Origin: an uncultured Candidatus Poseidoniales archaeon
GTDB lineage: Archaea > Thermoplasmatota > Poseidoniia > Poseidoniales > Poseidoniaceae
DNA: 64,000 nt
Direction of reading: 5' to 3'
Assembly: GCA_964014545.1 (NCBI GenBank)
Contig: CAXGZX010000001.1
Location: forward strand, 9,279-73,278
The notes below the pieces were generated by a model. That model was not told where the DNA came from. It did not search any database and saw only the letters and a list, made by a program, of their open reading frames with translations. Of this stretch, positions 8,225 to 53,126 are shown piece by piece (the stretch's first letter is position 1; each line of letters begins with the position of its first letter). The position numbers and the translations under genes were made by a program.

Positions 8225-8276
8225 CTCATCCTGCAAATAGATGCATATCAATATAGGGATGAATTGAATAATATTA

Positions 8277-9863: not shown

Positions 9864-9936
9864 ACATCATGGTCAATGCGTACTACTCTTTACTCCACCG
9901 CCGATGAGGCGGTAAAATTCTGAGTTTTGGCTGAAA

Positions 9937-34614: not shown

Positions 34615-34830
34615 ATGGCGGATGATTTGACCGAACTTGAAGCGAGACTCTTTGAGTGGATTAGACAATCTGATTTCGATACTATGCCATGGTCTACTGC
34701 AAGCGCAGCAAAGGCGTTTAAAGTAAAAAAGGACGAAATATATGAAGCAGTGGCCGCTTTGACAAGAAAGGTTCCTGAAAGAATTCAAGTATTCTACAAA
34801 GAAGGCTCGGTTCACATCGCCGCCGAGTGA
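34615..34830 (+). CDS. Small hypothetical protein (~72 aa).
   Basis: The ORF is open from 34573. The Met at 34615 (MADDLTELEARL...) is the likely start. No recognisable motif. Confidence 0.35.
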   Translation: MADDLTELEARLFEWIRQSDFDTMPWSTASAAKAFKVKKDEIYEAVAALTRKVPERIQVFYKEGSVHIAAE

Positions 34831-34844
34831 TTGTTTAGTGAAAG

Positions 34845-34860
34845 TTTAGGATGTCCTAAA
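34845..34860. promoter_or_regulatory. Inverted repeat TTTAGGA-tg-TCCTAAA located ~43 nt upstream of the PhnD-like gene. It is a candidate operator.
   Basis: Seen directly. 7-bp perfect arms. It has the TTAGG...CCTAA character of DtxR-type boxes. Confidence 0.3.
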
Positions 34861-34902
34861 TTATATTAACAAGCAGTTTTAGGGCAACCTCAAGGTGATT
34901 GT

Positions 34903-36132
34903 TTGAGGGGACCCAAAATTTCTATTTTTGCAGTATTAATTATGCTGATTGCTAGCATACCAGGGTGTATATTTGACCCCCTAGAGTTTGACAAATGTGA
35001 AGACGAAGATAATTGTTTGACCATTGCTTTTGAAACTAAAGAAGAATATCGAAATTCTGATGAGAACCCGCAAAAACTTGCAGATCGGCTTGAAGAGATA
35101 ATGGATGTAGAGGTTGAAATCTACACTGTGTCTGGACCTGCTGCAACGATTGCTGCCCTTGAATATGGTAAGGCTGACATAGGATTCCTCGATGGTGGAG
35201 CGGCCTGGCTGAGTGCTGAAACAAGAGGATTCGAAATAGCCGCTGCCGAACAAAAGGGAGATGGAAGACCATACTACAATGCAGTTGCATGGGTACACAA
35301 AGACTCAGATATGGCAATCGCAGACAAGGCGGGCGAAGACCCATATGCGCTAATGGCTGGGAAAATTTCCTGCCACACCTCTCCGCTTGGAAGTTCAGGA
35401 ATGTTACTGCCAATGGGATGGATGATTTCAGAAGGTTATGTTGACGTTGTTGGAGACCCCAATTTAATGGATTCACTCTACTCAACAGTTAGAAATCACT
35501 TCTCAGAAGACTCTAGCATCCCAGATAGCGGCACACTATATCGTGGCTATGGCGGCTCACTTAGATGCTTGGCAGAACATAGTTTAGGTGATGCTACAGA
35601 TTACATTTCGTTTGCCAAGGACCCAACGGTACCTGATTACTGTGGTGAAGATCCAAGTTCGTGGTGTTTTACCGGAGATTTCACTAGCACAGAAGATTTC
35701 TATCCACTTGGTGGCTATAATGAAACAACAGGTGAGATTAACAGCTTTGGCAGAGCACCAAGCCATCCAGTAATGTACAATCCTGAATACTTTAGTCAAG
35801 GCGAAGTCGACTCACTGCGTGCAGCATTTGAAGTAATGAACGGCAATGATGATGACTTGGAAATATTGGATGATGTTCTTGGAACCCCTGGAATCACCAT
35901 CACCAATACTGAAGATCACATTGGTGACTACGGAGACGCTATCGAAGATGTCCCAGGCATTGCAGCCTACCTCAATGATAAAGTCAATAAAACCTCATCT
36001 GATGATAGTGGTTCTGATATTATTATTTATGGCGGAGTTGCAGTAGTTGCAATAGCATTGGTTACCGGTGCTATATTCCTTAGAAATAATAAGAATCAAA
36101 ATTGGGAAGCCGAAGCAGAGGAATCAGAGTAG
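34903..36132 (+). CDS. phnD: Phosphonate/phosphite-type ABC transporter substrate-binding protein (PhnD/PtxB-like) with a lipobox-like signal and a C-terminal TM anchor.
   Basis: Type-2 PBP fold blocks LTIAFETKEE...YGKADIGFLDGGAAWL and SCHTSPLGSSGMLLPMGW. The signal ends ...ASIPGC. C-terminal anchor IIIYGGVAVVAIALVTGAIFL. Confidence 0.55.
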   Translation: MRGPKISIFAVLIMLIASIPGCIFDPLEFDKCEDEDNCLTIAFETKEEYRNSDENPQKLADRLEEIMDVEVEIYTVSGPAATIAALEYGKADIGFLDGGAAWLSAETRGFEIAAAEQKGDGRPYYNAVAWVHKDSDMAIADKAGEDPYALMAGKISCHTSPLGSSGMLLPMGWMISEGYVDVVGDPNLMDSLYSTVRNHFSEDSSIPDSGTLYRGYGGSLRCLAEHSLGDATDYISFAKDPTVPDYCGEDPSSWCFTGDFTSTEDFYPLGGYNETTGEINSFGRAPSHPVMYNPEYFSQGEVDSLRAAFEVMNGNDDDLEILDDVLGTPGITITNTEDHIGDYGDAIEDVPGIAAYLNDKVNKTSSDDSGSDIIIYGGVAVVAIALVTGAIFLRNNKNQNWEAEAEESE

Positions 36133-36197: not shown

Positions 36198-37424
36198 TTG
36201 GTGCTGAAATATCTAGGAGTGAAAAACATGAGGAAAACTAATGCAATACTAGTAATTTTAATGATGAGTCTAGTATGCCTGTCCGGTTGCTTTGGTGAGG
36301 ATGAAGAGCCAAGATTTCAATGGCCTGAGATGGTTGAAATCGAATGTGAGCCTGATTCTGTATCATATCAATGCGATTTTTATGCCAAAGTCGGCTCTAC
36401 AGTGACAAAGACCCTGTTACACCCTTCTGATGGCTCGGTTTGGATTGCTGAGTTAGACGGCAAAATTACCTCATGGAACGGTGAATTCACTGTTGAAATA
36501 GGTAATTTGAGCCAGCAGATTTCTAGATGCCACAATGAACAAGGATTGTTAGGGTTTTCTTTTACTCATGATTTCAATAACAGTGGCGAAATTATCCTTT
36601 CATATACTGATAATATGGATTGTGAGGGACCTGCTGACCTTTCCGGCATAGTCGTCGCAGCAGCTGATATTGTCGATGGTAAAATAGACCTTGAGTCAAT
36701 AGTTGAGATGAGGAGAATTAGTAAGGAAAACCGAAATCACAACGGAGGAAACCTACTATCCCTTGGTGATGGGACATATCTGTGGTCTATTGGCGATGGT
36801 GGCGGCTCAGGAGACCCAAAAGAAAATGGTCAAAACATTCACACACCATTAGGTACAATTCAATATTTCACTTACCACAATAAATCTGTCCAACCGGTAT
36901 TTGACCTGTATGGTAATGACACCGATTATGTATTACATTACGGCCTTAGAAATCCTTGGAAATTTGACATTGATAATAGTGGGCAATTATGGATTGCTGA
37001 TGTTGGACAATATTGCTATGAAGAGATAAATCTAGTGCCAATTTTCGACCAGAGTAACTTTGGTTGGTCACAAAGAGAAGGAATGCACAATTATGACCCA
37101 TCTGATGATTGTACAAGTGCAGCAACTACTCCTGATGATAATAATCTTACAGATCCAATTGTCGAGTATGCACATACTGGCGGAAACTGCTCCATTACCG
37201 GTGGTTTTTGGATGGATTGGGGGCCAAATTCTCTTCAAGGTGGCTATATCTATGGTGATTTTTGTACTGGTGCAATATGGAAAATTTCCCTAAGCAATGG
37301 CAATTGGGAAGCTAATTTCATTACCTCAGTTGGCACATACATTACTGGTTTTGGCCAGGGAATTAATGATGAACTATTGATATTCAGCTGGACTGGTGCA
37401 ATATATTCGCTTGCAGATGCTTGA
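36198..37424 (+). CDS. Soluble quinoprotein glucose/sorbosone dehydrogenase (GSDH)-like beta-propeller lipoprotein.
   Basis: HNGGNLLSLGDGTYLWSIGDGGGSGDPKENGQNIHTPLGTI matches the GSDH HNGG...GDGG...DP..NAQ signature. The signal LVCLSGC looks like a lipobox. Confidence 0.6.
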   Translation: MVLKYLGVKNMRKTNAILVILMMSLVCLSGCFGEDEEPRFQWPEMVEIECEPDSVSYQCDFYAKVGSTVTKTLLHPSDGSVWIAELDGKITSWNGEFTVEIGNLSQQISRCHNEQGLLGFSFTHDFNNSGEIILSYTDNMDCEGPADLSGIVVAAADIVDGKIDLESIVEMRRISKENRNHNGGNLLSLGDGTYLWSIGDGGGSGDPKENGQNIHTPLGTIQYFTYHNKSVQPVFDLYGNDTDYVLHYGLRNPWKFDIDNSGQLWIADVGQYCYEEINLVPIFDQSNFGWSQREGMHNYDPSDDCTSAATTPDDNNLTDPIVEYAHTGGNCSITGGFWMDWGPNSLQGGYIYGDFCTGAIWKISLSNGNWEANFITSVGTYITGFGQGINDELLIFSWTGAIYSLADA

Positions 37425-37430
37425 TTATCA

Positions 37431-38348
37431 TTAATTCTTCTTATTCCTTTGATGGAACTTTTGCGCTAAACTAGCCGGTAGTAAAACTGTGAATATAGAA
37501 GATTCACCTAATTCTGATTCATCTGTGACAAATGACCTGATAAATAGTGACAAGAAATCAATTATCACGATTACTACGAAGATGACAATTAGATAGGTCA
37601 TAACATGATTGTACAAGTCTAATTCCATGGCTCTGTCTATATGAAGACCAATTCCTCCAGCGCCGACTAAACCTAGAACAGTACCGTGTCTGACATTGTA
37701 CTCAAACATAAACAATATTTGACTCAAGAAAGTATTGCTAGATTCTGGAATTACCACCTTGGATACAATTTCAGTGTGACTAAGACCCATTGCTCTTGCT
37801 GCCTCTAACGGCTCTCGGTTAATCCCCTCTATTTCCTCATACTGAAGTTTTCCAAGATAGCCGATAGTGTAGAGCGTCATTGCTAAGACACCGGCTAGAG
37901 GGCCAATACCAACGACAATAACAAATACAATTGCCCATATTATGCTTGGCAGGCATCTAGTGAAAGATAGTATCAACCTTGTTGGTACTAGAACCGACTT
38001 GGGAACCAAATTCTTTGCCGCAAATGACGAGAGAGCAATTGCCCCAATAAACCCGAAAATAGTTGCGACAAAGGCCATTTTCAAAGTTTCAAGCATCCCA
38101 GTATATGCTTTAGAGCAGAAAAATTCAATGTTAACGTTGCATTTTGGCGGCTCGGACTGTGCCTCAAAAATAAGCGCCCACTCAGGAGGCCAAAGTTCGG
38201 TATTCCAGAACTTTACTAGGTTACTAAAACCACCAGTTAAATCTCCCCAATCACCTCTGACAAGGTTATTTAGAATTATAAAAGCCAAAATAACTAAGCT
38301 AAAAGAGATGACAGAAACCTTGTTGATTTTTGTTGACATAAGGCTCAC
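37431..38348 (-). CDS. phnE: Phosphonate-type ABC transporter permease.
   Basis: EAARAMGLSHTEIVSKVVIPES is the PhnE/BPD EAA loop. Six TM helices. Confidence 0.65.
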   Translation of the reverse strand: MSLMSTKINKVSVISFSLVILAFIILNNLVRGDWGDLTGGFSNLVKFWNTELWPPEWALIFEAQSEPPKCNVNIEFFCSKAYTGMLETLKMAFVATIFGFIGAIALSSFAAKNLVPKSVLVPTRLILSFTRCLPSIIWAIVFVIVVGIGPLAGVLAMTLYTIGYLGKLQYEEIEGINREPLEAARAMGLSHTEIVSKVVIPESSNTFLSQILFMFEYNVRHGTVLGLVGAGGIGLHIDRAMELDLYNHVMTYLIVIFVVIVIIDFLSLFIRSFVTDESELGESSIFTVLLPASLAQKFHQRNKKN

Positions 38349-39013
38349 TCCGCTTCATTTAGATTAACATCAAAGTCACCTAAGTCAACTATTCTATCGG
38401 CTATTTGATTAGCCCTATCCAGATGATGTTCCACCAGTAGCATTGCAGAATTATTATTTTTGACATAATCTCTCATTAGTCTGATAATAGAGTCTGCATT
38501 CTCCTTGTCTAACTCACTTAGAAATTCGTCTGCTAAAATTAATTCAGGGGATTGAGCGATGGCACGAGCAGTTGCTACTCGACGTTGTTGACCGCCTGAC
38601 AACCGTCTGATTGGTTCGTTTATTTTTTCAGTAAGACCGACTAATTTTACCGTTTCATGGATCAAAACAGATTTACGTTTTGACCAATTGAGAATATTGC
38701 CTAATTCATCGTTGACCTTGATGCCACATCTTGCGCCTAACTCGACATTATGATACACGCTTGCATGACGGACTAGTCCAAGCCTTTGTGGGATGTAACC
38801 AATCCCGCCACGCCTTCTTACATTACCAATTATTTTGCCAGATAATTTTGGAATCAATCCAGCAATTGTGCGCAATAGCGTAGTTTTCCCAAGACCAGAT
38901 ATGCCGACTATTGCGACTATTTCACCTGGTTTTATTTCAAGGTTAAATCCACTAACTAGAGGACTGTTATAGCCCACAGATAAATTCTTTATTTTGACAA
39001 TTGGTTTAGCCAT
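38345..39013 (-). CDS. phnC: Phosphonate-type ABC transporter ATP-binding protein.
   Basis: Walker A GISGLGKTTLLR, signature LSGGQQRRVATARAI, Walker B LILADE. Confidence 0.7.
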   Translation of the reverse strand: MAKPIVKIKNLSVGYNSPLVSGFNLEIKPGEIVAIVGISGLGKTTLLRTIAGLIPKLSGKIIGNVRRRGGIGYIPQRLGLVRHASVYHNVELGARCGIKVNDELGNILNWSKRKSVLIHETVKLVGLTEKINEPIRRLSGGQQRRVATARAIAQSPELILADEFLSELDKENADSIIRLMRDYVKNNNSAMLLVEHHLDRANQIADRIVDLGDFDVNLNEAE

Positions 39014-39071
39014 CTTACAACCCCACCAATAGTAGTAGCCTGTCCTATAGTTTAGTAGTTAAGAATATATC

Positions 39072-39914
39072 TCAGCGGGCTTTTATTCGAACTCTAGCCT
39101 GCTTTACCAATCTAATAATAGCCACCCTAAGTTCATCCTCAGCAATTGTCTTGCCAAACGGAACATAAAATGAATGGGTTGAATCTTGGCATTGTAAGAA
39201 CACTCCTCTTGAATCAAGGTCGGTCATTATGACACTGCTAGAGGTCTTACCATGATAGCCATCATAGATATCGACCATAGCATCTACATGATCTTCATTC
39301 ATATGTTCAATTGATTCCAGTTTACTAGACTGAAATGTTGGATGAATCTCGTTTGACAAATATTCATCACCTTCAATCCAACAGATTCTACCAAAACCGG
39401 CGATATACCTTATTTTTATGATATCATCCATTAACCAAAATGAAAAGTTATGTGTTTTTAGATACGCATCAGCATTTGGAACTTGGGCTCGATATCTTGT
39501 GAGCATCACATCTTCTTCTGAAGCTGTTACTATCACCGTATTGCCTGAATCTGTTCCTTCCTCAGCAGGTGCAGTAGCGGTTCTGACTTCCTTGAAATTG
39601 CCAATAATAGATGCCCGCCAAAAAGACTGTGGATCACCTTCGGGATTTGGATGGGAAATGAATAATGTGGATTTGTTATTTTCCATTAAATTCTTTGTGT
39701 GAGCTGCGATTCCGGCAATGAGTATGTACGGTTTACCTTCAGGAGTTATAGCAAATGGGACTACCGACGAGATTGGGTAGTCTTCAGTTCCCTTATTTGA
39801 TGAAATAGTAGATAAAACTCCATGCCCGGTTTCTACTAACCATTGAATCACATCCGAAGGGGGATTGGATTTATCTCTTGAATTTCTCTCTGCCAAGTCG
39901 ACGTCATTGCTCAA
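39072..39914 (-). CDS. Pyridoxamine-5'-phosphate-oxidase-like split-barrel protein with a DUF2470-like C-terminal domain (HugZ/HutZ-like heme-utilisation candidate).
   Basis: N-terminal split-barrel pattern VIQWLVETGHGVLSTIS...PISSVVPFAITPEGKPYILIAGIAAHTKNLMENNKSTLFI, then a second ~120-aa domain. Confidence 0.5.
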   Translation of the reverse strand: MSNDVDLAERNSRDKSNPPSDVIQWLVETGHGVLSTISSNKGTEDYPISSVVPFAITPEGKPYILIAGIAAHTKNLMENNKSTLFISHPNPEGDPQSFWRASIIGNFKEVRTATAPAEEGTDSGNTVIVTASEEDVMLTRYRAQVPNADAYLKTHNFSFWLMDDIIKIRYIAGFGRICWIEGDEYLSNEIHPTFQSSKLESIEHMNEDHVDAMVDIYDGYHGKTSSSVIMTDLDSRGVFLQCQDSTHSFYVPFGKTIAEDELRVAIIRLVKQARVRIKAR

Positions 39915-39918
39915 AATA

Positions 39919-40377
39919 TCACTTCCATGTTTCGTTGAATAAATTCAATGTATCTTCAATCCATGCCTCTGCATCATCTTCATAATCGACATCGCAATCT
40001 ATTCTTTCATGAATGCGGTTACCGCCTTTCTCCTGGAGAATGTTATCCCATTGAATACCTGCCTCACAGAATAGATCGAACGCAGTGTCTCCAAGAGCAA
40101 GAACTGCAAAACCTACCTCAGCCATACTCCCGTCGTCAGAGCCTTCCACTGAATCGTATAAATCAATTGCATTATCTGGTTGCTCGCCATCCCCCCAAGT
40201 GCTACAAACAATAAGCACATTTCCATTCTCTTGTATATCTGACAAAGTAATTTCATCCATACCATTTATGGTAACGTCAAATTCTAAATCCTTAGCAAGT
40301 TTTTCTGCATCCATCGCCAGTAATTCAGAATTGCCAGTTTCGGTGCCATAAAGTATCAATATTTTCTTATCACTCAT
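39919..40377 (-). CDS. Flavodoxin.
   Basis: KILILYGTETGNSE FMN-phosphate loop and CSTWGDGE isoalloxazine loop. 152 aa. Confidence 0.85.
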   Translation of the reverse strand: MSDKKILILYGTETGNSELLAMDAEKLAKDLEFDVTINGMDEITLSDIQENGNVLIVCSTWGDGEQPDNAIDLYDSVEGSDDGSMAEVGFAVLALGDTAFDLFCEAGIQWDNILQEKGGNRIHERIDCDVDYEDDAEAWIEDTLNLFNETWK

Positions 40378-41186
40378 CTTTTATCCGTCCTATTTGTTTT
40401 TATCACATTTATTTGTGGAATGTGAGGGTCGTCTGGATATAACACATCAACAGCCACTCCGTAGACTTTGGAAATAGTCTCCCGACTTAAGGCAGTGTAG
40501 GGTGTGTCATAGCAATATATTGAATTATCATCGATTATCATGATTTTATCAGCAAATTTAGCTGCTAAATTAATATCGTGCATTGCCACTAAAGCGCTAC
40601 AGATTCCAGTTTTATCATCTACTAAATTTTTTATTTCTTGTAAAATTTCAAATTGACTACTTAGGTCCAAATTACTTGTAGGTTCATCGAACAGATATAA
40701 CGTTGGATTTTGGACTATGGCTTTGGCAATAATTACGCGTTGTTGCTCTCCTCCAGAGAGTGTATGGAATTTACGAAATATGAACTCACTAAGCCCTAAT
40801 CGCATGATAACACTTTGAACAATCTCTCTGTCTTGTTTACCTATTCTCCAGCCAATGTAAGGTCTTCTACCCAGTAATATAACGTCATAAACATCCATTG
40901 AAAATCCAGTAGAAACACTCTGTGGAACGTATGCAACTAGTTTAGATAAGTCCATGATTGAAGTATCTGATAGAGGATTGTTGCAAACTTTAACAGAGCC
41001 TGAATCAAAGTTAATTATTTTATTTAGACATTTTATGAGGGTTGATTTACCAGCCCCATTAATCCCTAAAACTGCGACAAATTGATTTGGTTGTACTGAA
41101 AAAGTCAGGTTTTCCAGAATTTTTTTGTTCTTATAGGCAAAACTTAGATCTTTTACCTCAAGAATATTTTCCGCAGTTTCATCCAT
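40374..41186 (-). CDS. Iron-complex/cobalamin-type ABC transporter ATP-binding protein (FepC/FecE/BtuD-like).
   Basis: Walker A LGINGAGKSTL, signature LSGGEQQRVIIAKAI, Walker B LYLFDEPTSNLD. The ORF is open to 41237. The Met at 41186 avoids overlap with the permease. Confidence 0.8.
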   Translation of the reverse strand: MDETAENILEVKDLSFAYKNKKILENLTFSVQPNQFVAVLGINGAGKSTLIKCLNKIINFDSGSVKVCNNPLSDTSIMDLSKLVAYVPQSVSTGFSMDVYDVILLGRRPYIGWRIGKQDREIVQSVIMRLGLSEFIFRKFHTLSGGEQQRVIIAKAIVQNPTLYLFDEPTSNLDLSSQFEILQEIKNLVDDKTGICSALVAMHDINLAAKFADKIMIIDDNSIYCYDTPYTALSRETISKVYGVAVDVLYPDDPHIPQINVIKTNRTDKR

Positions 41187-42300
41187 ATCTCTCACTCCTT
41201 CTTGCCAATAAAAGGTAGAGGAAAAACGGACCTCCAAGTATCGAAAGCATTACTCCTACTGGAATCACTATTGGTGCCACAATTGTCCTGCCAATTGTAT
41301 CAGCAATAAGTACTAATAAAGCACCTATTAATGCAGAACAGGGTACTAATTTACGATAATCATTGCCAATTACCAACCGGCCAATATGTGGTGCAGCTAA
41401 GCCGACAAAACCAATTAATCCAGTAAATGCGATTATGAGGGAAGTTATTAATGCTGAAATTATCAATATATTTTTCCTCACTGCTGCAGGATTTACTCCT
41501 GTTGAGATTGCAAAATCATCGCCTCCTAGTGCTAATGTGTTGAGGTCCCAAGAATACCTCATTAATGCCGGAAATATTCCACCAAGAACAACTCCAACCC
41601 ATAGCACTGTTGCTAAATTGGGTCTTGAAACACTACCAAATGACCAGTGTGTTAATTGGGCAAGTTGTTGATCTGTTGCAAAATAAGTTAATGTTGAGAC
41701 TATTGCACCTGCAATGAAGGTAATGGCAATTCCCACTAAAATGTATGATTCTGCTGAGACCCCTCTTACTTGACCTAGTTTGAGTATTATGAACACCACG
41801 ATTAGTGAAAAAACAAATGTGTTTACCACTAGAATTGTATTAGGAATAATGTCGGCAAAAAATGAGTCACCATCACCAATAACTGAAAATCCAAGAATAA
41901 TCGCTAATGCAGCACCCAAAGATGCACCTGAGGCGACTCCGAGGGTAAGGGGAGAAACCAATGGATTCCCTAAGCTTCCTTGCATTAATGCTCCTGCTGT
42001 AGCAAGTGCTGTTCCTGCGAAAATAGCCATTAAAATCCTCGGAAGGCGAATTTCTAGCAAAATAGCGGACTGAATATCGGTTGGCTCATCTAATTGTAGA
42101 ATTATTCTAGTTGTTTTCCAAAATCCCAGAGACTCTGATGAGCCAATTCCTAAAGCAAATATTGCGGCAGTAAGCGTTGCAATACCAATTGTGACAAGGT
42201 AGAAAAAATGCTTTGAGTCCCTTTCCTCGACTAACTCTTCTAGATTAATTTGTGTTGGATTTTGGCTTTCGAAGTTTTCATCCAAACCCCACACAATCAA
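41179..42300 (-). CDS. FecCD-family ABC transporter permease (BtuC/FepD-like).
   Basis: About 9-10 TM helices and the typical FecCD glycine-rich core LGGDDFAISTGVN...RLPRIL. TTG start. Confidence 0.8.
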   Translation of the reverse strand: MIVWGLDENFESQNPTQINLEELVEERDSKHFFYLVTIGIATLTAAIFALGIGSSESLGFWKTTRIILQLDEPTDIQSAILLEIRLPRILMAIFAGTALATAGALMQGSLGNPLVSPLTLGVASGASLGAALAIILGFSVIGDGDSFFADIIPNTILVVNTFVFSLIVVFIILKLGQVRGVSAESYILVGIAITFIAGAIVSTLTYFATDQQLAQLTHWSFGSVSRPNLATVLWVGVVLGGIFPALMRYSWDLNTLALGGDDFAISTGVNPAAVRKNILIISALITSLIIAFTGLIGFVGLAAPHIGRLVIGNDYRKLVPCSALIGALLVLIADTIGRTIVAPIVIPVGVMLSILGGPFFLYLLLARRSERYG

Positions 42301-42304
42301 TCAC

Positions 42305-43393
42305 CTAAGGTTGGCAGACAAAGGTACCGACTCTGTCTGTATTATGGAATTCTGAAAAATATTCATCTAAGTATGTATTAGTGTCAATATCTTCGAATAA
42401 ATTAGGGTGCAAAATCTTAGCAAGAGTTGGTAATCCGTGTATCATCATTGGACCGGCAAATTCACCAGCCATAACTAACAGGTTATTGTCTTGAATCGCG
42501 GTTATTTCATCAAATCCCGGCCTTGTTTTGATAAAATCGAAATGTGCGGGACACTTGTCATCAGGGTCATAGGAATCATACCCAATTTCAAAGGTAATTC
42601 CATCAAACATCAAATAATCAGGATTAGCGTCTAATATTGCCTCCATATCTACATGAGTTGTGTGCCCTGGCTCATCCTCAAACACATTAATTCCCCCAGC
42701 CATTGAAATTATATCGTTCCATTGGGAGGTCCCAGTCAGAACAACTGGATCTCTGGTCAATGAAGCATGGTGTTCCATAATTACACTAGGTCTCTGTTCT
42801 GTTGTCAAATTACTAATTCTTTGGTCGACCATTTGTTCTATCACGTCAAATTCAGCCAATATAGTAGACAATTGTTGTTGTTTATCAAATAGATTAGCAA
42901 GCACTGACATTTCTGACCTCAAGGAGTCATATTTATAGAAATCAAGCGCTAAAACCCGAATTCCAACAGGTTCTAATTTATCTCTTATTGCGTCTGTGTC
43001 GACCATCCCATTGGTAGCAAATACGATGTAAACTTCAGGTTGGGTATCAAATAGTGCTTCGTAATCAATCTCCGAATGAGCTGAATTCTGGATAATATCT
43101 TTGCCTTGTAGTTCAGGCCACAATGATGAATCTTGAAAATCACCAGACATCCCAGTTACTACTGAAAAATTTATTTCAAGCATCCTCATTACTGTGGCAG
43201 CATACGTATTAGTTATAGCAACGCTTTCTGGAGGAGATTCAAAGTAATGAGTCACACCATTAGAGTCAATAACCTTGATACTACCATTATCATTATCTTC
43301 TGATGAATTTATTTCTGAGATATTGTAAGCAAAAAAACCAAGGATGATTAGGATGACCAATTGCAATGCAATTATTTTTCGCTCACCAATCAT
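42305..43393 (-). CDS. Class-III (FecB/BtuF-like) periplasmic-type substrate-binding protein with an N-terminal anchor.
   Basis: Signal anchor ALQLVILIILGFFA followed by the Peripla_BP_2-like bilobal pattern VAITNTYAATVMRML...PEVYIVFATNG. Confidence 0.7.
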   Translation of the reverse strand: MIGERKIIALQLVILIILGFFAYNISEINSSEDNDNGSIKVIDSNGVTHYFESPPESVAITNTYAATVMRMLEINFSVVTGMSGDFQDSSLWPELQGKDIIQNSAHSEIDYEALFDTQPEVYIVFATNGMVDTDAIRDKLEPVGIRVLALDFYKYDSLRSEMSVLANLFDKQQQLSTILAEFDVIEQMVDQRISNLTTEQRPSVIMEHHASLTRDPVVLTGTSQWNDIISMAGGINVFEDEPGHTTHVDMEAILDANPDYLMFDGITFEIGYDSYDPDDKCPAHFDFIKTRPGFDEITAIQDNNLLVMAGEFAGPMMIHGLPTLAKILHPNLFEDIDTNTYLDEYFSEFHNTDRVGTFVCQP

Positions 43394-45708
43394 GATACTA
43401 ACCTTCTATTTTGAAAGAATATTACCGCTAGTGTAATGGTAGAAAGGATGCCAAACAATGGTAGGAAAGGTAAGAAGTTGTCATTATTACTTTCTTCAGG
43501 GTCATAATTCACATATGAAGAATTTGACAGTTCAGAATATTTCCCATCGGTAATTCCTGCTTGGATTCTGAATCTGTTTTGACCTTCATCTAAATCATCG
43601 AACATGTACGATGTAGCACTGCCGTTATACACCTCAGTCATCGAACCATCTGACCCTGAATGCAGCACTGAATACCAGTCTACATTATCTATCGACGTCC
43701 AACTAACTAACAATTCATTATCATCAGTTACATTTTGTGTGTAAGGCATAGTCAGTATCGGGAGTTGTATAATGTATTCAACCTCTATAGTTATGATTTC
43801 ACTTAATAATTCAGCTCCAGATGGCAATACTACCTTCACTTGGTATTGATATATTCCATCATCTTTATTCATCAATTCTAAACTCGATTCATTTCCTTGA
43901 TAAACTTCAATGCCGTTTTCTAACAGTGTATAAGACACTGCTCTGCCAAATTCGCCCCATTCTAACTGAACATTTTGAAAATTAATAATGCTTGACTGGG
44001 TAACAAATTGTGGGATAGTAGGTACGCCTGAATGATTGATTAGATGATAGGTGACTGCTTCTGAGTGTGAACCTGGCAGTCTATCAATAATTTTTACCCA
44101 GTTTCTAACAGTCTCATTATACCATAACTCCCATGAATCAATATTATCATTCAAATCTGTGATTTTAAAGTATGTTGTTAGATAACTACCACTTGGAGTA
44201 TTAACTGTTACATTTTCTGTCACTTCAATGATATTATTCGTGTCATCATATCCATTAGGGTGTCCAGGGACACCAATGATATTTGTACGATTAAAATGAG
44301 CATTAACAGGATTACCGGAGAATAGATTTGTCCCCAGTCCATTTTCGGTAGTGAAATTCCAACCCATACTGCCTGCAACGAAGTACTCTAAGGTTTCTGA
44401 ATACGTTTTCAAGCGCAAGAGATTGACGCTATCAATCCAATAATATCTAATCCGATCTGGTGAATCATAAATATCCTCGACACGCAATAGATAACACTCT
44501 TGTTCTACGCCAAAGGTATCTTCGATAACCTCTGTACCAATGGCAGTCATGGTTAATTCATGAGTCCCGTTGGTACTTTCGGGAAGATAATCAACTGCAT
44601 ATTGCCAACTCATTCCAACATTCCAGAAACTATCTTCAGAAGGTGATAAAACCACGGCACTAATCTTTTTTATTGCCGCAATCGAGCCGTTTAAATTTAT
44701 TGCCGTCAAACTAAATTCAAATGAACCAACCTCGGATGGCGTGAAATCAAATTGAGTGCTTGATCCACGATAGATGACCTCGCTATCTAAAGAGAGTTCG
44801 AAATAATCTGTGTAATCACCTTTAGTCCACTGAATCAGTTTTGAATTATCATCATCGATTTGAATATCAAAAGAGGAAGTCAGGAATTCTGGTGCAATCG
44901 GCATTTCAGGAGTTATTTCTGAAGTAAGATTGTGCCATCCTAAGCTATCCTCTATCATGATTTGATGAGTGGCAATGATTTCAATTTCATTTTGATAAAC
45001 TGAGAGGTTTACTGTTTCACCAATGTTCAAGCCGTTTATTAGGAAAAATCCATCCGAATTTGTCCTAGACATATGTTGTCCAATTTGAACATCTACGTTG
45101 GGCATTGAATTGCCAAGCATGTCACTTAGGTAACCATACTTGCTGGTGGTTCCTTGGTTCATTACTAGGTAATTTACCATAGGTTCTCCTGCCGAACCAC
45201 CTTGTAACTTTAACATCGCTGTTTGGTTTAAGCCATTATCATAAAATGCTGTCACGTTGTAGTATTGATCCATTTCATACGGTCCAAATTCTAATAATTC
45301 TGCATGTGGTTTATTCTCTTGAATGTTTTCACCAGAAATAGAGAAAGTAGCAAGTTGATCATCGCTACTAACAGTAATCCAGTTATTGTCTACTATCCAA
45401 TCTAATTGCAAATCAGAGTTTATGATTATTTTTCGATAAGCCACATTATGCCCGTCATTCATGAAATAAGCCCGTATAATGTGCTCACCACTTGCTATGT
45501 CAGTGTATTGATAATCTCCTGCTGAATCTGTCCAGACCGAGTCATACCCAGTGATTTTAATCGAGGTAGAACCAGCAACTTCCCCGGACTGGTGGAGGAC
45601 TTTACCAGTCACAGTGAAAGTATCTTCTGGTTCTGTTGCTTGACTTATATCAATTGGTAATGTTGAAAAACAAATTAGAAAGACAATAATTGGTGCTATC
45701 TTTTTCAT
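43390..45708 (-). CDS. Large (772 aa) secreted cell-surface protein with a CarboxypepD-reg-like beta-sandwich N-terminal domain, Ig/FN3-like repeats and a C-terminal TM anchor.
   Basis: Signal MKKIAPIIVFLICFSTLPIDISQA. N-terminal TGKVLHQSGEVAGSTSIKITGYDS...GDYQYTDIASGEHIIRAY. C-terminal FLPFLPLFGILSTITLAVIFF. A 4-nt overlap couples it to the binding-protein gene. Confidence 0.6.
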   Translation of the reverse strand: MKKIAPIIVFLICFSTLPIDISQATEPEDTFTVTGKVLHQSGEVAGSTSIKITGYDSVWTDSAGDYQYTDIASGEHIIRAYFMNDGHNVAYRKIIINSDLQLDWIVDNNWITVSSDDQLATFSISGENIQENKPHAELLEFGPYEMDQYYNVTAFYDNGLNQTAMLKLQGGSAGEPMVNYLVMNQGTTSKYGYLSDMLGNSMPNVDVQIGQHMSRTNSDGFFLINGLNIGETVNLSVYQNEIEIIATHQIMIEDSLGWHNLTSEITPEMPIAPEFLTSSFDIQIDDDNSKLIQWTKGDYTDYFELSLDSEVIYRGSSTQFDFTPSEVGSFEFSLTAINLNGSIAAIKKISAVVLSPSEDSFWNVGMSWQYAVDYLPESTNGTHELTMTAIGTEVIEDTFGVEQECYLLRVEDIYDSPDRIRYYWIDSVNLLRLKTYSETLEYFVAGSMGWNFTTENGLGTNLFSGNPVNAHFNRTNIIGVPGHPNGYDDTNNIIEVTENVTVNTPSGSYLTTYFKITDLNDNIDSWELWYNETVRNWVKIIDRLPGSHSEAVTYHLINHSGVPTIPQFVTQSSIINFQNVQLEWGEFGRAVSYTLLENGIEVYQGNESSLELMNKDDGIYQYQVKVVLPSGAELLSEIITIEVEYIIQLPILTMPYTQNVTDDNELLVSWTSIDNVDWYSVLHSGSDGSMTEVYNGSATSYMFDDLDEGQNRFRIQAGITDGKYSELSNSSYVNYDPEESNNDNFLPFLPLFGILSTITLAVIFFQNRRLVS

Positions 45709-45797
45709 TTTTTCACCGTTACTACATCATAGATGCCAACGGGGTACACTCTCACACTGGGTGAATGATGAGAGCGTAGCCCCGCCAGCGATGAAGC

Positions 45798-45818
45798 TTA
45801 GTTAGTGATACTAACTAA
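45798..45818. promoter_or_regulatory. 21-bp perfect inverted repeat TTAGTTAGT-gat-ACTAACTAA, resembling a DtxR/IdeR iron box. It is a candidate metal-regulated operator for the downstream transporter operon.
   Basis: Seen directly. It lies 12 nt after the stop of the 418-aa lipoprotein gene and ~90 nt upstream of the 772-aa gene start. There is no T-tract, so it is not an obvious terminator. Confidence 0.4.
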
Positions 45819-45829
45819 TGCTAATTTGA

Positions 45830-47086
45830 TCAGGCATAGGTTCCGATATCATCGGAAGTTATACCGTAGTGGTCCCATACTGGTTGCAACCAAGCCGTGA
45901 CATCGTAAGATGTACCTAGTTGGGTAGCGTCTGTCAAATCCAAGACGTTATTCATCAAGGTAGCAGCGTAGTTGTCCTGGTAATAGTTGGATGTGTATCC
46001 ATCGCAGCCTGCTTTGTCAGTAGCATCAGTAGAAACCATGTGGTTTACTGTGTTGTAGCATGTGTCGTTTGCTCCGTTAGAATCCATTGAACCGTTTGTC
46101 CAGATGAAAGCGTCACAAGCAGATGCGTCGATTTCTCCCATCATCATTACTTTGTGACCGACAGCCATGTTGTAACATCCGTCATGCATGTGTGGCGCAG
46201 AGTATGCTTCCATAACCTTCCAGAAAGCGTATGCTTCTGCTTGGTATTTCTCTCCACTGTCTGCGTTATCCATCTTTGATGTGTACTTCAGTACAGCTTG
46301 TGAGTATGCTGTGATAACGTTCTTGACAACGGTGTTTGCTGCACTGGTGTATCCAGCAGAATCTTCTGCTTGAAGAGCAGTTAGACCAGCAACCATTGCA
46401 TCTTCAATAGCAATGAAGGTGTTGGAAACGCCGTCGGTTTCAGTTCCAAAGTCAGCGCCTCTCTTGTTTAGAGTAGCGACTGGACCACATGAATTGTCTT
46501 CATCAGGTCCGTGGAAGAATGCCCAGCCTTCGTCCCAGTTGTGTGGTGCTCCAGAATCGTCATCAACATTGCCTGCATCAGCCTTAGCAATTGCCGCATT
46601 TAGTTCGTGAATTGTGTATCCAACCATTCCCATGTTAGCGGTTAGTTTTGCGACACCTTGGTATCTTACTGTGTCACTGGTACCTTCGAAGTCACCTGTT
46701 CCATCTAGCGCTGCCATAATGTGAGCACCGATTGATCCAGTTTGGTTGTAGTAGGTATCGTAGTTGTGGTTCTTTCCTTCAGCTGCAGCGAATCCTGCAA
46801 GAGTTCTAAAGGAATCATCACTCTTTTGTGCATTCTTACCATTGGTGTAAATGTCTTTTGCAGTTGTCCAGTCATATGCACTGGCTGCTGTTTTTATGTC
46901 ACACAAGTCTTTCATCAGACTTCGGTGATTGTCAACATTTGAAGCATAGGTGTAGCCACCATCAGCAGCATCCATTGTGCTTGCTGTTTCATCATCTTCG
47001 TCGTCGTCTGTTCCCAAGCAGCCTGCTAATCCAGAAACTGCCATCAATGCTATCAATAATAATCCTTTTACTTTCTTGTGGTTCAT
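45830..47086 (-). CDS. Highly acidic secreted lipoprotein of unknown function (Asp/Tyr/Thr/Ala-rich, several Cys).
   Basis: Signal plus lipobox-like LAGCLG followed by TDDDEDDE. No catalytic motif recognised. Confidence 0.55.
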   Translation of the reverse strand: MNHKKVKGLLLIALMAVSGLAGCLGTDDDEDDETASTMDAADGGYTYASNVDNHRSLMKDLCDIKTAASAYDWTTAKDIYTNGKNAQKSDDSFRTLAGFAAAEGKNHNYDTYYNQTGSIGAHIMAALDGTGDFEGTSDTVRYQGVAKLTANMGMVGYTIHELNAAIAKADAGNVDDDSGAPHNWDEGWAFFHGPDEDNSCGPVATLNKRGADFGTETDGVSNTFIAIEDAMVAGLTALQAEDSAGYTSAANTVVKNVITAYSQAVLKYTSKMDNADSGEKYQAEAYAFWKVMEAYSAPHMHDGCYNMAVGHKVMMMGEIDASACDAFIWTNGSMDSNGANDTCYNTVNHMVSTDATDKAGCDGYTSNYYQDNYAATLMNNVLDLTDATQLGTSYDVTAWLQPVWDHYGITSDDIGTYA

Positions 47087-47168
47087 AATATACCCTCGGT
47101 TTTGGCCTCCCTAAAAACCACCCCTACATATAACTTAGGTTACCCTAAACTTTCAATTTATGCCGGTA

Positions 47169-48062
47169 CTAAGCGTCAATCCATTGTGCTGTTAGGCTTT
47201 CGACATACCTGTCTTGGTCAATACCAGTATGCCCAATTGGACGGACCACAACTAGGAGATCCAATTCCCCGCCCCATGTGCCTTTTGCTACACAGAATAC
47301 CTCTCCTACTTTGACACCATCGGGATTTGAACTCAAAGTCAAACTCCGTAAGTCATACAATCTAATATCCAATTCATGATTACCTGTTGCTGTTTGAAAG
47401 GTATGTTTAGCTTTATCTTCAATGGCTAATAATTTCATCTCCTCAGGGTCGATGTTGAAGACAATTTGTTCGTCTAGTAACTCAATTGCTTGATCCATTC
47501 TTGATTGCTGCATGTTGAATACATCGGCAATATTTAGCGTTGAAGAGGCAAGAGATAATTTGGAAAACTGATGCGATGTCCTGATGGTCAAGGATTGGAC
47601 AATCTCTACATTTAATCCGCCCTCATCAGGTAGCATTAGCCAAGTATATTGCTTGCCAGCAGGATAAATTGGGGCATTGGGGTTTTCTGTAAAAAGTGGC
47701 TCGCCCCATTCATCAGGCGATTTCGGTTCGGATGTTGGAACAAAGCCACCCATCAACAAAACCACCACCATAGATACTGCAGCATAAGTTCTTATTTTGC
47801 CAAATTTTTTCCATGAAGCCCGGCCTGCAGGGCTTATTGACGATAGAATTAGCACCAGAGGTATAATGACCAGAATGCCATAAGGAACAATCCACAAAAA
47901 GATTACAACGCCGATCAAAAATTCGATTCCATATTGTCCGTAAGCATTGCGATAATCTAGGTCAGAATCATCGTTTGAATATCTGTGTTTAAGATAAACA
48001 ACAGCATAGACCACAGCCACCATGGACAATGAAACTAATACTGAACCAAGCACCTTAATCAC
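47169..48062 (-). CDS. Membrane protein with three N-terminal TM helices and a C-terminal soluble domain. Function unknown.
   Basis: Hydrophobic segments VLVSLSMVAVVYAVVYL, FLIGVVIFLWIVPYGILVIIPLVLIL and AAVSMVVVLLMGGFV. Confidence 0.5.
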   Translation of the reverse strand: MIKVLGSVLVSLSMVAVVYAVVYLKHRYSNDDSDLDYRNAYGQYGIEFLIGVVIFLWIVPYGILVIIPLVLILSSISPAGRASWKKFGKIRTYAAVSMVVVLLMGGFVPTSEPKSPDEWGEPLFTENPNAPIYPAGKQYTWLMLPDEGGLNVEIVQSLTIRTSHQFSKLSLASSTLNIADVFNMQQSRMDQAIELLDEQIVFNIDPEEMKLLAIEDKAKHTFQTATGNHELDIRLYDLRSLTLSSNPDGVKVGEVFCVAKGTWGGELDLLVVVRPIGHTGIDQDRYVESLTAQWIDA

Positions 48063-52064: not shown

Positions 52065-53126
52065 ATGTTCATTGGTTCAATTGATTCACATAGCCACGAA
52101 GGTGGTTTACTCGCCTCATTTAGTGGTTCCTCACCAGCACTTGGTTCAATAATTGTTAGTTCTGATGACGGAACTTACATTGGTAAGATTGACGCTGTTT
52201 TAGGCGGTACTGAATCCCCTATCGCCCATATTGCTCATCTTGACCGTAAAATGGATGCTAGCCAATTCATCGGTATAGATGTCAAAATAAGACCCAAAGT
52301 AGAACGGGAGGATCGCTTTGATAGATCTCGAGGCGACCGAAACGACAGGCGTCGTAATGATGACAGAGGCGGGAGAAGAGATGATAGAAGAGATTCTCGA
52401 CGAGATAATCGCAGAGACTTCGGCAGAGACAATCGACGTGACAATTACAGGGATAACCGTTCTAGAGGAAATGACCGCAGAGATTCCCATGGAGACAATG
52501 ATTGGGATTGTCCAAAATGCAACAATTCCAACTTTGCTAGAAGAGTAGAGTGTAACAGATGTGGTGCTCCAAAGCCGGGTGGGGGCGACTCTGGTGACAG
52601 AAGAAACTCTCGGTATGACTCTCGACCGCCAAGAAGAGATAATCGTCGAGACTCTAGAGACCGTAATTTCAATAGACCTGAGAGAAAAACGTTTACTGAC
52701 AATGATTGGGAATGTAAAAAGTGTAATAACTCTAATTTTTCATTTAGAACAGAATGTAATAGATGCGGAGAACCCAAACCAGGTGGTGGAGGCAACAGCA
52801 GAGACCGCGGACCACGCAGAGACGACCGTCAAAGACGAGATAATCGAGGTGGCGGCAGAGACCGTGGACCACGCAGAGACGACCGTCCTAGAAGAGAGGG
52901 AGGTGCACGAAGAGAACGCGGACCACGCAGAGAGCGTGGACCAAGCAGGGATAGTCGTGGAAGTGACAGAGAGCGTGGACCAAGAAGAGAAGGAGGCGGT
53001 CGCCAAGAGCGAGACCCAACCGTTCGTAAATTCCGTCGCGCTAGAGGTAAATCATCTGGTCATGCGCACAACAGAGGACCCCAACCCCTTGATACTCGTC
53101 CACTAAAAAGAAATAGAGATGATTAA
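52065..53126 (+). CDS. Gar1-like beta-barrel N-terminal domain fused to an Arg/Asp- and Arg/Gly-rich low-complexity region containing two RanBP2-type zinc fingers. It is a putative RNA-binding protein.
   Basis: N-terminal IGSIDSHSHEGGLLASF...PALGSIIVSSDDGTYIGKIDAVLGGTESPIAHI aligns with archaeal Gar1 (LGKVLH...LIV...P.L...VVD...IG.V.DVFGPV..PY..I). ZnF1 is WDCPKCNNSNFARRVECNRCGAPKP (~52503-52580). ZnF2 is WECKKCNNSNFSFRTECNRCGEPKP (~52707-52785). Both fit W-x-C-x2-C-x3-N-F-x5-C-x2-C. RDxRR and RGPRR repeats run throughout. Confidence 0.6.
   Translation: MFIGSIDSHSHEGGLLASFSGSSPALGSIIVSSDDGTYIGKIDAVLGGTESPIAHIAHLDRKMDASQFIGIDVKIRPKVEREDRFDRSRGDRNDRRRNDDRGGRRDDRRDSRRDNRRDFGRDNRRDNYRDNRSRGNDRRDSHGDNDWDCPKCNNSNFARRVECNRCGAPKPGGGDSGDRRNSRYDSRPPRRDNRRDSRDRNFNRPERKTFTDNDWECKKCNNSNFSFRTECNRCGEPKPGGGGNSRDRGPRRDDRQRRDNRGGGRDRGPRRDDRPRREGGARRERGPRRERGPSRDSRGSDRERGPRREGGGRQERDPTVRKFRRARGKSSGHAHNRGPQPLDTRPLKRNRDD
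52300..53030. repeat. Imperfect tandem DNA repeats that encode the RD/RG-rich low-complexity region. For example, ggaccacgcagagacgaccgtc occurs twice about 57 nt apart.
   Basis: Seen directly at ~52807 and ~52864, with further degenerate copies (ggaccacgcagagagcgtggacc). Confidence 0.6.

Follow-up and report, generated by a model that had tools for sequence, protein, structure and literature searches.

A probable DtxR-box iron-acquisition locus in a marine Group II archaeon, with a transferrin-like binding protein and a flavodoxin–HOZ pair

We analyzed a 64,000-nucleotide stretch of DNA (the window) from an uncultured Candidatus Poseidoniales archaeon (GenBank assembly GCA_964014545.1, contig CAXGZX010000001.1, positions 9,279 to 73,278), with a focus on a gene cluster at 37431–48062 and a convergent gene for a transferrin-like (Tf-like) substrate-binding protein (SBP), or 'PhnD', just beyond it. 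The region is very probably a DtxR-box iron-acquisition locus of a marine Group II (MGII) archaeon. We further consider it likely that this is the main iron-acquisition locus of this archaeon, repressed via DtxR/TroR-type boxes and combining two uptake routes, one formed by an FEA1-related lipoprotein, the Tf-like SBP and a PhnC/PhnE-type importer, and the other by a FecCD-type chelate importer with an associated flavodoxin and HOZ-type protein.

A sequence-only reading of the window had described ten co-directional genes at 37431–48062 as an island for iron and heme acquisition and iron sparing, and all ten open reading frames (ORFs) are present there on the minus strand, with short gaps or 4-nt overlaps between them. 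Families were assigned by Pfam and NCBIfam profile searches with curated cutoffs applied, which yielded the following members of the cluster and its convergent partner.

45830–47086, minus strand: FEA1-related lipoprotein (NF038033, 311.6 bits, cutoff 250)
43390–45708, minus strand: Surf772, a C-terminally anchored, all-beta protein of 772 aa (weak CarboxypepD_reg match only)
42305–43393, minus strand: class-III SBP with an N-terminal membrane anchor (PF01497, Peripla_BP_2)
41179–42300, minus strand: FecCD-family (type II) ABC permease (PF01032, E = 9e-78)
40374–41237, minus strand: ABC ATPase of the FecCD-type importer (best NCBIfam model heme ABC ATPase, 212 bits, below the cutoff of 261)
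39919–40377, minus strand: short-chain flavodoxin, 152 aa (PF00258, Flavodoxin_1, 7e-28)
39072–39914, minus strand: HOZ-type protein, a CREG-type split barrel followed by DUF2470/DRI (PF13883 and PF10615)
38345–39013, minus strand: PhnC-like ABC ATPase (TIGR02315, 133.8 bits, below the cutoff of 266; PF00005)
37431–38348, minus strand: PhnE-type ABC permease of a type I importer (TIGR01097, 230.6 bits, cutoff 216.7)
34903–36132, plus strand: Tf-like SBP, 'PhnD' (PF00405, 30.3 bits, cutoff 20.3, and PF12974)

The binding protein, FecCD permease, flavodoxin, and PNPOx and DUF2470 domains named in the sequence-only reading were all recovered, and its link between an iron-acquisition cluster and a DtxR-type system is supported and strengthened by the FEA1 family membership, the HOZ grouping and the conserved canonical DtxR boxes described below. 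Other assignments required sharpening: the acidic lipoprotein is a lipoprotein (lipobox LAGC, residues 20–23) and belongs to the FEA1-related family by both NF038033 and PF07692 (2e-29, 103.1 bits against a cutoff of 25), the supposed FepC-type ATPase is an ABC ATPase with a heme-type best model below cutoff, and PhnC and PhnE, although correctly recognized (PhnE above and the PhnC-like ATPase below cutoff), are linked to the Tf-like SBP gene outside 37431–48062 rather than being a loose appendix.

We compared the window proteins with 43 Poseidoniales loci using tblastn. The FecCD permease was 93–96% identical to counterparts on contigs of Poseidoniales metagenome-assembled genomes (MAGs), the exact HOZ-like protein was found again in TARA and other marine assemblies with its neighbors unchanged, and the order Surf772–SBP–FecCD–ATPase–flavodoxin–HOZ was kept in ~40 of the 43 loci, down to 30–60% protein identity. 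The genes for FEA1, PhnC/PhnE and the Tf-like SBP remained in the cluster despite altered gene order, with the Tf-like SBP gene placed between FEA1 and Surf772 in three loci (L019, L039 and L044) and divergent from PhnC in three others (L016, L023 and L043), in which the flavodoxin gene was relocated beside FEA1. Because this linkage outlasts rearrangement, it is good evidence for a shared function of FEA1, PhnC/PhnE and the Tf-like SBP. We rejected a mobile 'island' origin and regard the locus as core, since the flanking housekeeping genes for G3P dehydrogenase, AP endonuclease and DHBP synthase keep their synteny throughout the order. Its G+C content (0.37–0.40 at 38000–46000) is slightly under the window average of ~0.42, though the locus is syntenic across the order. 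Two loci labeled 'Verrucomicrobiales bacterium ARS100' (L031 and L036, NZEQ01) carry the archaeal cluster at 57–63% identity and in archaeal gene order, which is probably due to binning contamination of that MAG.

The exact 14-bp palindrome TTAGG-N4-CCTAA (TTAGGNNNNCCTAA) occurs only twice in the window, once in the FEA1 promoter and once in that of the Tf-like SBP, and each exact box has a one-mismatch copy 33–34 bp downstream.

47135–47148, no strand: FEA1 promoter box O1, TTAGGGTAACCTAA (as minus strand), exact, abutting a TATA-like TTATAT at 47128–47133
47101–47114, no strand: FEA1 promoter box O2, one mismatch, between the TATA box and the start codon
34846–34859, no strand: Tf-like SBP promoter box O1, TTAGGATGTCCTAA, exact consensus, with a TATA-like ATTATATTAA directly after it
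34879–34892, no strand: Tf-like SBP promoter box O2, TTAGGGCAACCTCA, one mismatch, 33 bp downstream of O1 and between the TATA box and the start codon

The exact box at 34846 stands 57 bp upstream of the Tf-like SBP start, its position is likewise occupied in relatives, and the box–TATA–box architecture recurs across lineages. The motif is identical to the redefined IdeR/DtxR target (PMC8464063) and matches the TTTAGGC-NNN-CCTAAA motif obtained for Haloferax TroR by chromatin immunoprecipitation sequencing (PMC10783522). The tandem spacing in the window also matches that of TroR sites, which surround the TATA box in promoters of iron-uptake genes as tandem copies spaced by ~30 bp, with either site alone sufficient for iron-dependent repression (PMC10783522). 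By analogy with these TroR and IdeR precedents, we infer that the boxes are bound by a DtxR-family protein and respond to iron.

Across the 598 kb of the 43 related loci we found 38 exact boxes, compared with 0.6–0.8 expected. Thirty-two of them lie within 200 bp upstream of FEA1 (19), Tf-like SBP (7), PhnC (3) or Surf772 genes (3, where Surf772 heads the cluster). PhnC carries its own box where it is divergent from the Tf-like SBP gene, and Surf772 does so in lineages without FEA1 upstream. Among the six boxes located elsewhere, two (both in L019) are FEA1 promoter sites, the FEA1 protein of this locus having a longer N-terminus, and one perfect match (L024, position 11624) stands 31 bp upstream of an M28–ZIP fusion gene (9275–11593, minus strand), likely a further member of the regulon. 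The fusion protein joins an M28 peptidase-like ectodomain to a ZIP metal permease. As a less biased test, a metagenome collection covering all biomes was scanned for a box plus TATA, which returned 80 loci. The downstream gene encoded a Tf-like SBP in eight and a Surf772 homologue in three, and a DtxR-family protein, an FTR1/EfeU iron permease and an ArsP_2-like permease in one each; the remainder resembled chance matches. In L118 and L140, a DtxR-family gene with a Cys102-type iron signature and an FTR1/EfeU permease gene with a REALE motif each sit directly behind the box and TATA, and the ArsP_2-like permease gene is preceded by them on an unrelated metagenome contig (L128). Elsewhere in the window, a one-mismatch box (TTAGGGTCACCCAA, 9841–9854) lies at the start of a 528-aa ORF heading a cluster of CoxS/CoxL-like molybdo-iron-sulfur dehydrogenase genes (4803–9863), and could be a chance match because ~1.5 one-mismatch sites are expected per window.

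The DtxR-type regulator that had been noted ~30 kb from the cluster is present and is a candidate binder of the boxes.

15697–16353, minus strand: DtxR-family regulator of the TroR/MntR branch, with winged helix-turn-helix, dimerization and FeoA/SH3-like domains

Its gene overlaps the start of a gene for an ArsP_2-type permease with ten transmembrane segments (14489–15697), and the two form an apparent operon (14489–16353, minus strand). The earlier assignment of this protein to the DtxR type holds; its metal site is of the TroR/MntR type, from which iron specificity is not readable.

The Tf-like SBP has an N-terminal signal with a lipobox-like PGC and a C-terminal transmembrane anchor. Its best matches by sequence among solved structures were lactoferrin and transferrin lobes (E = 3e-12), followed at a distance by PtxB (4e-3). 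Transferrins coordinate iron through an Asp, two Tyr and a His, while a Thr and an Arg hold the carbonate, and HMMER alignment puts residues of the Tf-like SBP onto these ligand motifs. D97 (LDGG), Y125 (YYxAxAWV), T159 (CHT), Y216 (Y-x-GSLRCL) and H288 (APSHP) are invariant in the family, with the Asp/Tyr/Tyr/His ligands found in 36 of 36 one-lobe proteins and in essentially all of the 166 lobes of two-lobe proteins, over a range of 33% to 100% identity. T159 corresponds to the carbonate Thr. Clustering at 90% identity gives the family at least 617 clusters, every one of which has both Pfam domains, and forms of ~410 aa and ~702 aa occur, the latter being tandem duplications in which the ligands are kept in both lobes and the carbonate-Arg position is Lys in 166 of 166 lobes. 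The two-lobe protein of L019 scored 96.7 bits against PF00405. Two-lobe proteins were found in L019 (3707–5812), P0024, P0030, P0060 and ~80 more clusters, from MGIIb and MGIII archaea, and appear to be an independent parallel to the bilobal transferrins of animals. In a Foldseek search with an AlphaFold2 (AF2) model, the top matches were the ovotransferrin N-lobe, melanotransferrin and the human transferrin N-lobe. PhnE is linked to the Tf-like SBP in rearranged loci. Because of the DtxR-boxed promoter, the FEA1 linkage and the transferrin ligands, the Tf-like SBP is most likely the Fe(III)-delivering partner of the PhnE/PhnC-type importer.

The FEA1-related lipoprotein has at least 886 related clusters, and the NF038033/PF07692 family includes the low-iron-inducible algal FEA1 and the diatom phytotransferrin ISIP2a, which suggests a role in surface Fe(III) capture. 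A PDB sequence search with this protein gave no match, and an hhalign comparison of the FEA1 and Tf-like SBP profiles found nothing beyond the signal and lipobox, such that a common origin is not visible. We slightly favor the broader view that MGII and MGIII archaea carry true transferrin homologues, both one-lobe and independently duplicated two-lobe, as membrane-anchored Fe(III) binders of a PhnC/PhnE-type importer, alongside the phytotransferrin-like FEA1 lipoprotein.

The putative second route would begin with Surf772, which is always encoded directly upstream of the class-III SBP and whose stop codon overlaps the SBP start by 4 nt, consistent with translational coupling. Its AF2 model, which is confident (predicted local distance difference test, pLDDT, 81), is a string of beta-sandwich domains, and residues 471–549 form a strongly invariant central block; by position, Surf772 is a candidate ligand-capture receptor. 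Weighing against our interpretation, a Foldseek search with the Surf772 model gave generic Ig/FnIII strings only (TM ≤0.17), with no NEAT or other ligand-binding fold. The class-III SBP matched structures in the PDB in the order 9ht5/9hrj, YiuA, an Fe-hydroxamate binder, IsdE and BtuF, and thus resembles siderophore and heme binders more closely than BtuF, with which the sequence-only reading had allowed that it might cluster. We predict that its substrate is an iron chelate, with heme favored.

A grouping of the PNPOx-like protein with a generic FMN-binding family, which would likewise have counted against the sequence-only reading, was not seen; it groups with heme-binding HOZ proteins (PDB matches to PA4388, 5e-19; AtHOZ1/PtHOZ1, 2e-15; and the heme-degrading MSMEG_6519, 9e-13). 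H72, H204, H209, R100 and R169 are invariant in 36 archaeal orthologues; H72 corresponds to the heme-site His of AtHOZ1 (H135) and HugZ (H136), and H204/H209 (HMNxDH) to the DRI pair H201/H206 of PtHOZ1B (residue roles: PMC11602992). The two domains had been read as the HugZ/HutZ architecture, which does not fit: HugZ has DUF2470 and then the barrel, HutZ the barrel only, and the window protein the HOZ/PA4388 order, reversed relative to HugZ, with a HugZ score (TIGR04109) of 48.4 against a cutoff of 240 that comes from the DUF2470 part only. That prokaryotic HOZ-like genes neighbor transferrin-like, BPD and FecCD genes has been stated in one sentence, in which archaea and flavodoxin are unmentioned (PMC11602992). 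The HOZ-type protein is a candidate for cytoplasmic heme degradation and iron release.

The flavodoxin had been taken for the classical ferredoxin substitute of iron limitation. It is a flavodoxin, best matched by the CysJ FMN domain and MioC-type proteins, and falls below the long-chain FldA/IsiB model (TIGR01752, 33.6 against 146.75). It is kept inside the cluster in ~35 loci, either between the ATPase and HOZ genes or moved elsewhere in the cluster. Because it is of the short-chain CysJ/MioC-like type and fixed near HOZ or within the cluster, it may donate electrons to HOZ or to ferric-chelate reduction and not stand in for ferredoxin, although co-expression at low iron would be compatible with either role.

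In every lineage (equivalent spacers in loci L008–L055), the 3' spacer of FEA1 folds into two hairpins, of which the first is short and the second long and GC-rich.

45798–45818, minus strand: hairpin 1, the 21-bp palindrome TTAGTTAGT-gat-ACTAACTAA, 12 nt after the FEA1 stop codon
45735–45789, minus strand: hairpin 2, long and GC-rich (free energy −35.8 kcal/mol), with a conserved UCACCC loop motif

Hairpin 2 is the second most stable of 12,786 70-nt windows and the most stable non-repetitive fold, the most stable fold of all being a GCTGGTGCT-type coding repeat at 961–1030. It falls into three sequence classes that differ in their stems and show clear compensatory changes (for example CATACTTC/GAAGTATG vs. 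CATGCTTC/GAAGCATG, and GGCCAGCA/TGCTGGCC vs. GGTCAGCA/TGCTGACC), with the closing GGCGG(G/A)G...C(C/T)CCGT and the UCACCC loop conserved. Conservation was judged from per-sequence folds and z-scores; fold energies ranged from −29 to −49 kcal/mol and z-scores from −2 to −7. RNAalifold on a crude MAFFT alignment of the spacers gave a weak consensus (−4 kcal/mol), because the three classes were mis-registered, although six of nine predicted pairs were compensatory. No Rfam family matched the hairpins, and no riboswitch was found, at the gathering threshold over the whole window or at a relaxed E-value over 45600–45950. Scans for bacterial sigma-70 promoters and intrinsic terminators gave chance-level results, as expected for an archaeon. 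The UCACCC loop motif resembles the 16S anti-Shine-Dalgarno sequence. Because pairing is conserved while the sequence changes, an RNA structure is indicated rather than a protein operator, and on these comparative grounds the 21-bp palindrome is hairpin 1 of a covarying two-hairpin RNA-type element. The element probably acts as an mRNA 3'-end stabilizer or a partial terminator/attenuator, boosting the yield of FEA1 over that of the genes downstream.

Several observations weigh against the interpretation of this locus as a two-route iron-uptake system, and they favor different alternatives. PhnE exceeds the curated cutoff of the phosphonate-permease equivalog, PF12974 outscores PF00405 on the Tf-like SBP, the Arg that anchors carbonate in transferrin is replaced by Gly in the window protein and the other one-lobe forms, the AF2 model of the SBP is of moderate quality (pLDDT 68) with PhnD, PtxB and AioX interleaved as near-equal fold matches among the transferrins, and the MGII genome literature reads PhnC/E as phosphonate transport, a core MGII trait (PMC6336850). 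These points would suit an importer of phosphonate, phosphite or another oxyanion whose presence in the cluster is coincidental or stems from co-limitation. We consider this unlikely, given that the SBP scores below the cutoffs of the curated PhnD models (TIGR03431, 34.8 against 261.1; the broader TIGR01098, 52.6 against 112.05), which match only its residues 10–182, that the Asp/Tyr/Tyr/His tetrad is invariant even in both lobes of duplicated forms, that tandem DtxR boxes mark the SBP promoter in many lineages and in the metagenome-wide scan, and that SBP linkage to FEA1 and to the heme/siderophore system outlasts rearrangements. For the FecCD system, the import of a ferric siderophore (xenosiderophore piracy), with the flavodoxin and possibly the split-barrel protein in reductive iron release, is marginally more plausible than the phosphonate alternative while still unlikely. 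The best solved relatives of the class-III SBP are unnamed or siderophore-type (the closest named ones are YiuA, for iron/siderophore, and the Fe-hydroxamate binder), the ferrichrome/ferrioxamine model (37.4 against a cutoff of 374) outscores IsdE (TIGR03659, 32.3 against 298.65) with both below cutoff, and HOZ-like genes elsewhere neighbor siderophore-interacting proteins (PMC11602992). Heme is favored over a siderophore by the heme-site histidines, including the DRI HxxxxH pair, which are invariant in the 36 orthologues, by the heme ABC ATPase as the best model of the ATPase, and by a system that comes without a siderophore-interacting protein or FhuF-type reductase. A corrinoid (B12) importer, with the flavodoxin and split-barrel protein processing cobalamin, would explain why BtuC is the best curated model of the FecCD permease and a corrinoid ATPase model the second best of the ATPase, and flavodoxin does reduce cobalamin in bacteria. 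All of these scores are far under their cutoffs, and BtuF is the weakest of six models on the SBP (NF002894, 19.3 against 234). Surf772-led operons are DtxR-boxed wherever FEA1 is not upstream, Rfam found no cobalamin riboswitch in the window, and HOZ-family members bind heme (PMC11602992), such that B12 import is very unlikely.

Regarding control of the locus, the best structural and curated matches of the regulator are of the MntR, SloR and ScaR types, with MntR the best curated model, and it has a Mn-type Asp/Glu signature (Asp8/Glu) where DtxR has Met10 and Cys102, residues whose relation to metal type in the DtxR family is established knowledge. Its co-transcription with an ArsP_2 metal permease and the boxed ZIP permease of L024 likewise fit boxes that answer to Mn or Zn, and thus a general divalent-metal regulon under an MntR-type DtxR homologue. 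This is improbable, more so than either the phosphonate or the siderophore alternative: the boxed genes (FEA1, transferrin-type SBP, FecCD/HOZ system and FTR1 permease) all belong to iron-specific families, further DtxR paralogues may exist outside the window, and Haloferax TroR, of the same branch and with the same motif, is the primary iron regulator, so the TroR/MntR branch can serve iron (PMC10783522). The sequence-only reading had placed the operator at the 21-bp palindrome, which would make it a DtxR operator of the downstream transporter genes. The palindrome is real, perfect (9-3-9) and unique in the window (0.01 expected by chance), is built of TTAG/CTAA repeats, and lies 90 bp upstream of Surf772. 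Its inner element, TTAGT-N3-ACTAA, differs in both base and spacing from the DtxR consensus, which it does not match even at one mismatch, the true boxes being those at 47135/47101 and 34846/34879. Nor is it conserved beyond close relatives: its sequence persists only where identity is at least 87%, and in other lineages the position is taken by unrelated palindromes (AGTTAGC..GCTAACT or ACTGC..GCAGT), always paired with a second covarying hairpin. It follows the FEA1 stop even where a gene other than Surf772 comes next. We therefore rejected the palindrome as a DtxR operator, a role that we regard as highly improbable. A final point against our interpretation is that we identified no promoter for the eight genes that follow the hairpins. 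Because the window has no box in the interval from FEA1 to Surf772, their transcription by read-through from the boxed FEA1 promoter is the simplest explanation, and is an assumption.

If the locus is an iron regulon as we propose, a metal-loaded DtxR-family repressor would bind the tandem boxes bracketing the TATA box and block transcription initiation at the FEA1 and Tf-like SBP promoters. In the first route, for which the ligand set and genetic linkage are observed and the substrate is predicted, the surface FEA1-related lipoprotein would concentrate inorganic Fe(III), and the membrane-anchored Tf-like SBP would take it up through Asp-Tyr-Tyr-His and deliver it to the PhnE/PhnC-type importer. 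In the second, Surf772 would capture an iron chelate, most likely heme, and hand it to the class-III SBP, which would pass it to the FecCD/ATPase importer, and the cytoplasmic HOZ-type protein would release iron with electrons from the short-chain flavodoxin; here family membership, heme-site residues and the fixed gene order are observed, and both substrate and chemistry are putative. The hairpins, whose structure and covariation are evident, would probably stabilize or partly terminate the FEA1 message, which would leave the FEA1 lipoprotein in excess over the products of the eight read-through genes.

Two further genes border the cluster.

47169–48062, minus strand: membrane protein, 297 aa (no family in profile searches)
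36198–37424, plus strand: GSDH-like beta-propeller lipoprotein (PF07995, E = 1e-19)

The membrane protein, which had been counted as the first of the ten genes, was rejected as a cluster member: it matches no family, carries no box, is located on the far side of the boxed FEA1 promoter (upstream) and occurs only in close relatives. Although adjacent and co-directional, it is probably outside the unit. The GSDH-like lipoprotein (PQQ-dehydrogenase fold) is co-directional with the Tf-like SBP and in a conserved pairing with it. Because its gene is always encoded just 3' of that of the SBP, it probably lies within the DtxR-boxed transcription unit. A 71-aa ORF (34615–34830, plus strand) between the G3P dehydrogenase gene and the Tf-like SBP promoter matches no family and is called as a gene on two independent metagenome contigs (L001 and L002). 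Further along the window are a protein of 353 aa in which the RanBP-type zinc ribbon, a domain more familiar from eukaryotes, occurs twice (52065–53126, plus strand), and a giant ORF of 2275 aa (55544–62371, minus strand).

MGII are the most abundant archaea of the surface ocean, where iron limits productivity, and to our knowledge their iron acquisition is essentially undescribed. In the searchable literature we found no description of this locus, or of an Fea1, transferrin or low-iron-inducible protein, in MGII, and standard annotators of iron genes such as FeGenie lack models for FEA1-type, transferrin-type SBP and HOZ-type proteins. Taken singly, DtxR boxes, FEA1-related lipoproteins, HOZ proteins and FecCD importers are components of known kinds. 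What is new is how they combine: a probable iron regulon behind DtxR boxes in the archaea that are most abundant in the surface ocean, an SBP that has transferrin ligands and two-lobe relatives and would serve an importer of the PhnC/E type, a dedicated flavodoxin–HOZ pair, and a conserved RNA structure after FEA1. If our interpretation is correct, this highly conserved core locus of MGII constitutes an iron regulon whose operator is simple and can be searched for, and its genes could serve directly as metatranscriptome markers of iron stress in archaea. What has been taken for 'phosphonate transport', a core MGII trait, would then be iron uptake, and phosphonate use by MGII would have to be re-estimated. 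The transferrin family would acquire a prokaryotic branch with the full iron-ligand set and its own lobe duplication, and the Tf-like SBPs would be a prokaryotic link between PhnD-type binders and eukaryotic transferrins. A PhnD-to-transferrin transition has been proposed (McQuaid 2018, as summarized in PMC7676907), and would become experimentally testable.

Among known systems, PhnCDE resembles the type I importer in that PhnE passes its curated model, the ATPase is PhnC-like and the N-terminal half of the SBP matches PF12974, whereas the SBP fails the PhnD models, has the transferrin Fe ligands, a C-terminal anchor and a DtxR-boxed promoter, and no C-P lyase or phosphonatase genes lie nearby. 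The regulatory arrangement is closest to that of Haloferax volcanii TroR and of IdeR/DtxR, with the same core motif, tandem boxes ~30–45 bp apart around the TATA box and iron-uptake targets (PMC10783522, PMC8464063), and the window genome also encodes a DtxR-family regulator with a C-terminal FeoA/SH3-like domain. It differs in coming from another archaeal order (Poseidoniales), in that the nearby regulator is without a box of its own, and in that the predicted targets are FEA1-type and transferrin-type proteins rather than siderophore biosynthesis. The HOZ family (AtHOZ1, PtHOZ1B, MSMEG_6519 and PA4388), related to HugZ/ChuZ, shares with the window protein its domain order, the propionate-contacting His, the DRI His pair, and FecCD, BPD and transferrin-like neighbors (PMC11602992). 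Compared with described HOZ proteins, of which some are sensors and not enzymes, the fixed flavodoxin partner and archaeal setting are new.

Heme uptake by the Gram-positive Isd/Hts systems uses a surface receptor, the lipoprotein IsdE, the FecCD-type IsdF, cytoplasmic IsdG/I and the reductase IruO. The proposed second route is similar in having an anchored surface protein, an anchored class-III SBP, a type II ABC permease, no outer membrane, and a putative cytoplasmic heme-degrading protein with a dedicated flavoprotein reductant, all under a metal repressor; it differs in that NEAT domains are missing, the heme-degrading protein is of another fold family and the surface protein is a novel all-beta type. 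As for algal FEA1 and diatom ISIP2a (PF07692), the window protein belongs to a curated, surface-exposed prokaryotic FEA1-related family, and the iron-type operator of its gene parallels the low-iron induction of the algal proteins, although the archaeal form is a lipoprotein beside ABC importers and not a partner of endocytosis or Ftr1. In contrast to transferrin, a soluble carrier taken up by receptor endocytosis, the archaeal SBP is membrane-anchored with an ABC importer, has the carbonate Arg replaced by Gly (one-lobe) or Lys (two-lobe), and remains PhnD-like in its N-terminal half. With transferrin and lactoferrin lobes (PF00405) it nonetheless has significant sequence similarity, the motifs LDGG, (T)HYxAxAVV, CHT, Y-x-G-A-L-R/K-C and AP-S-H, the four Fe(III) ligands and the carbonate Thr in common, and two-lobe duplicates occur among its archaeal relatives.

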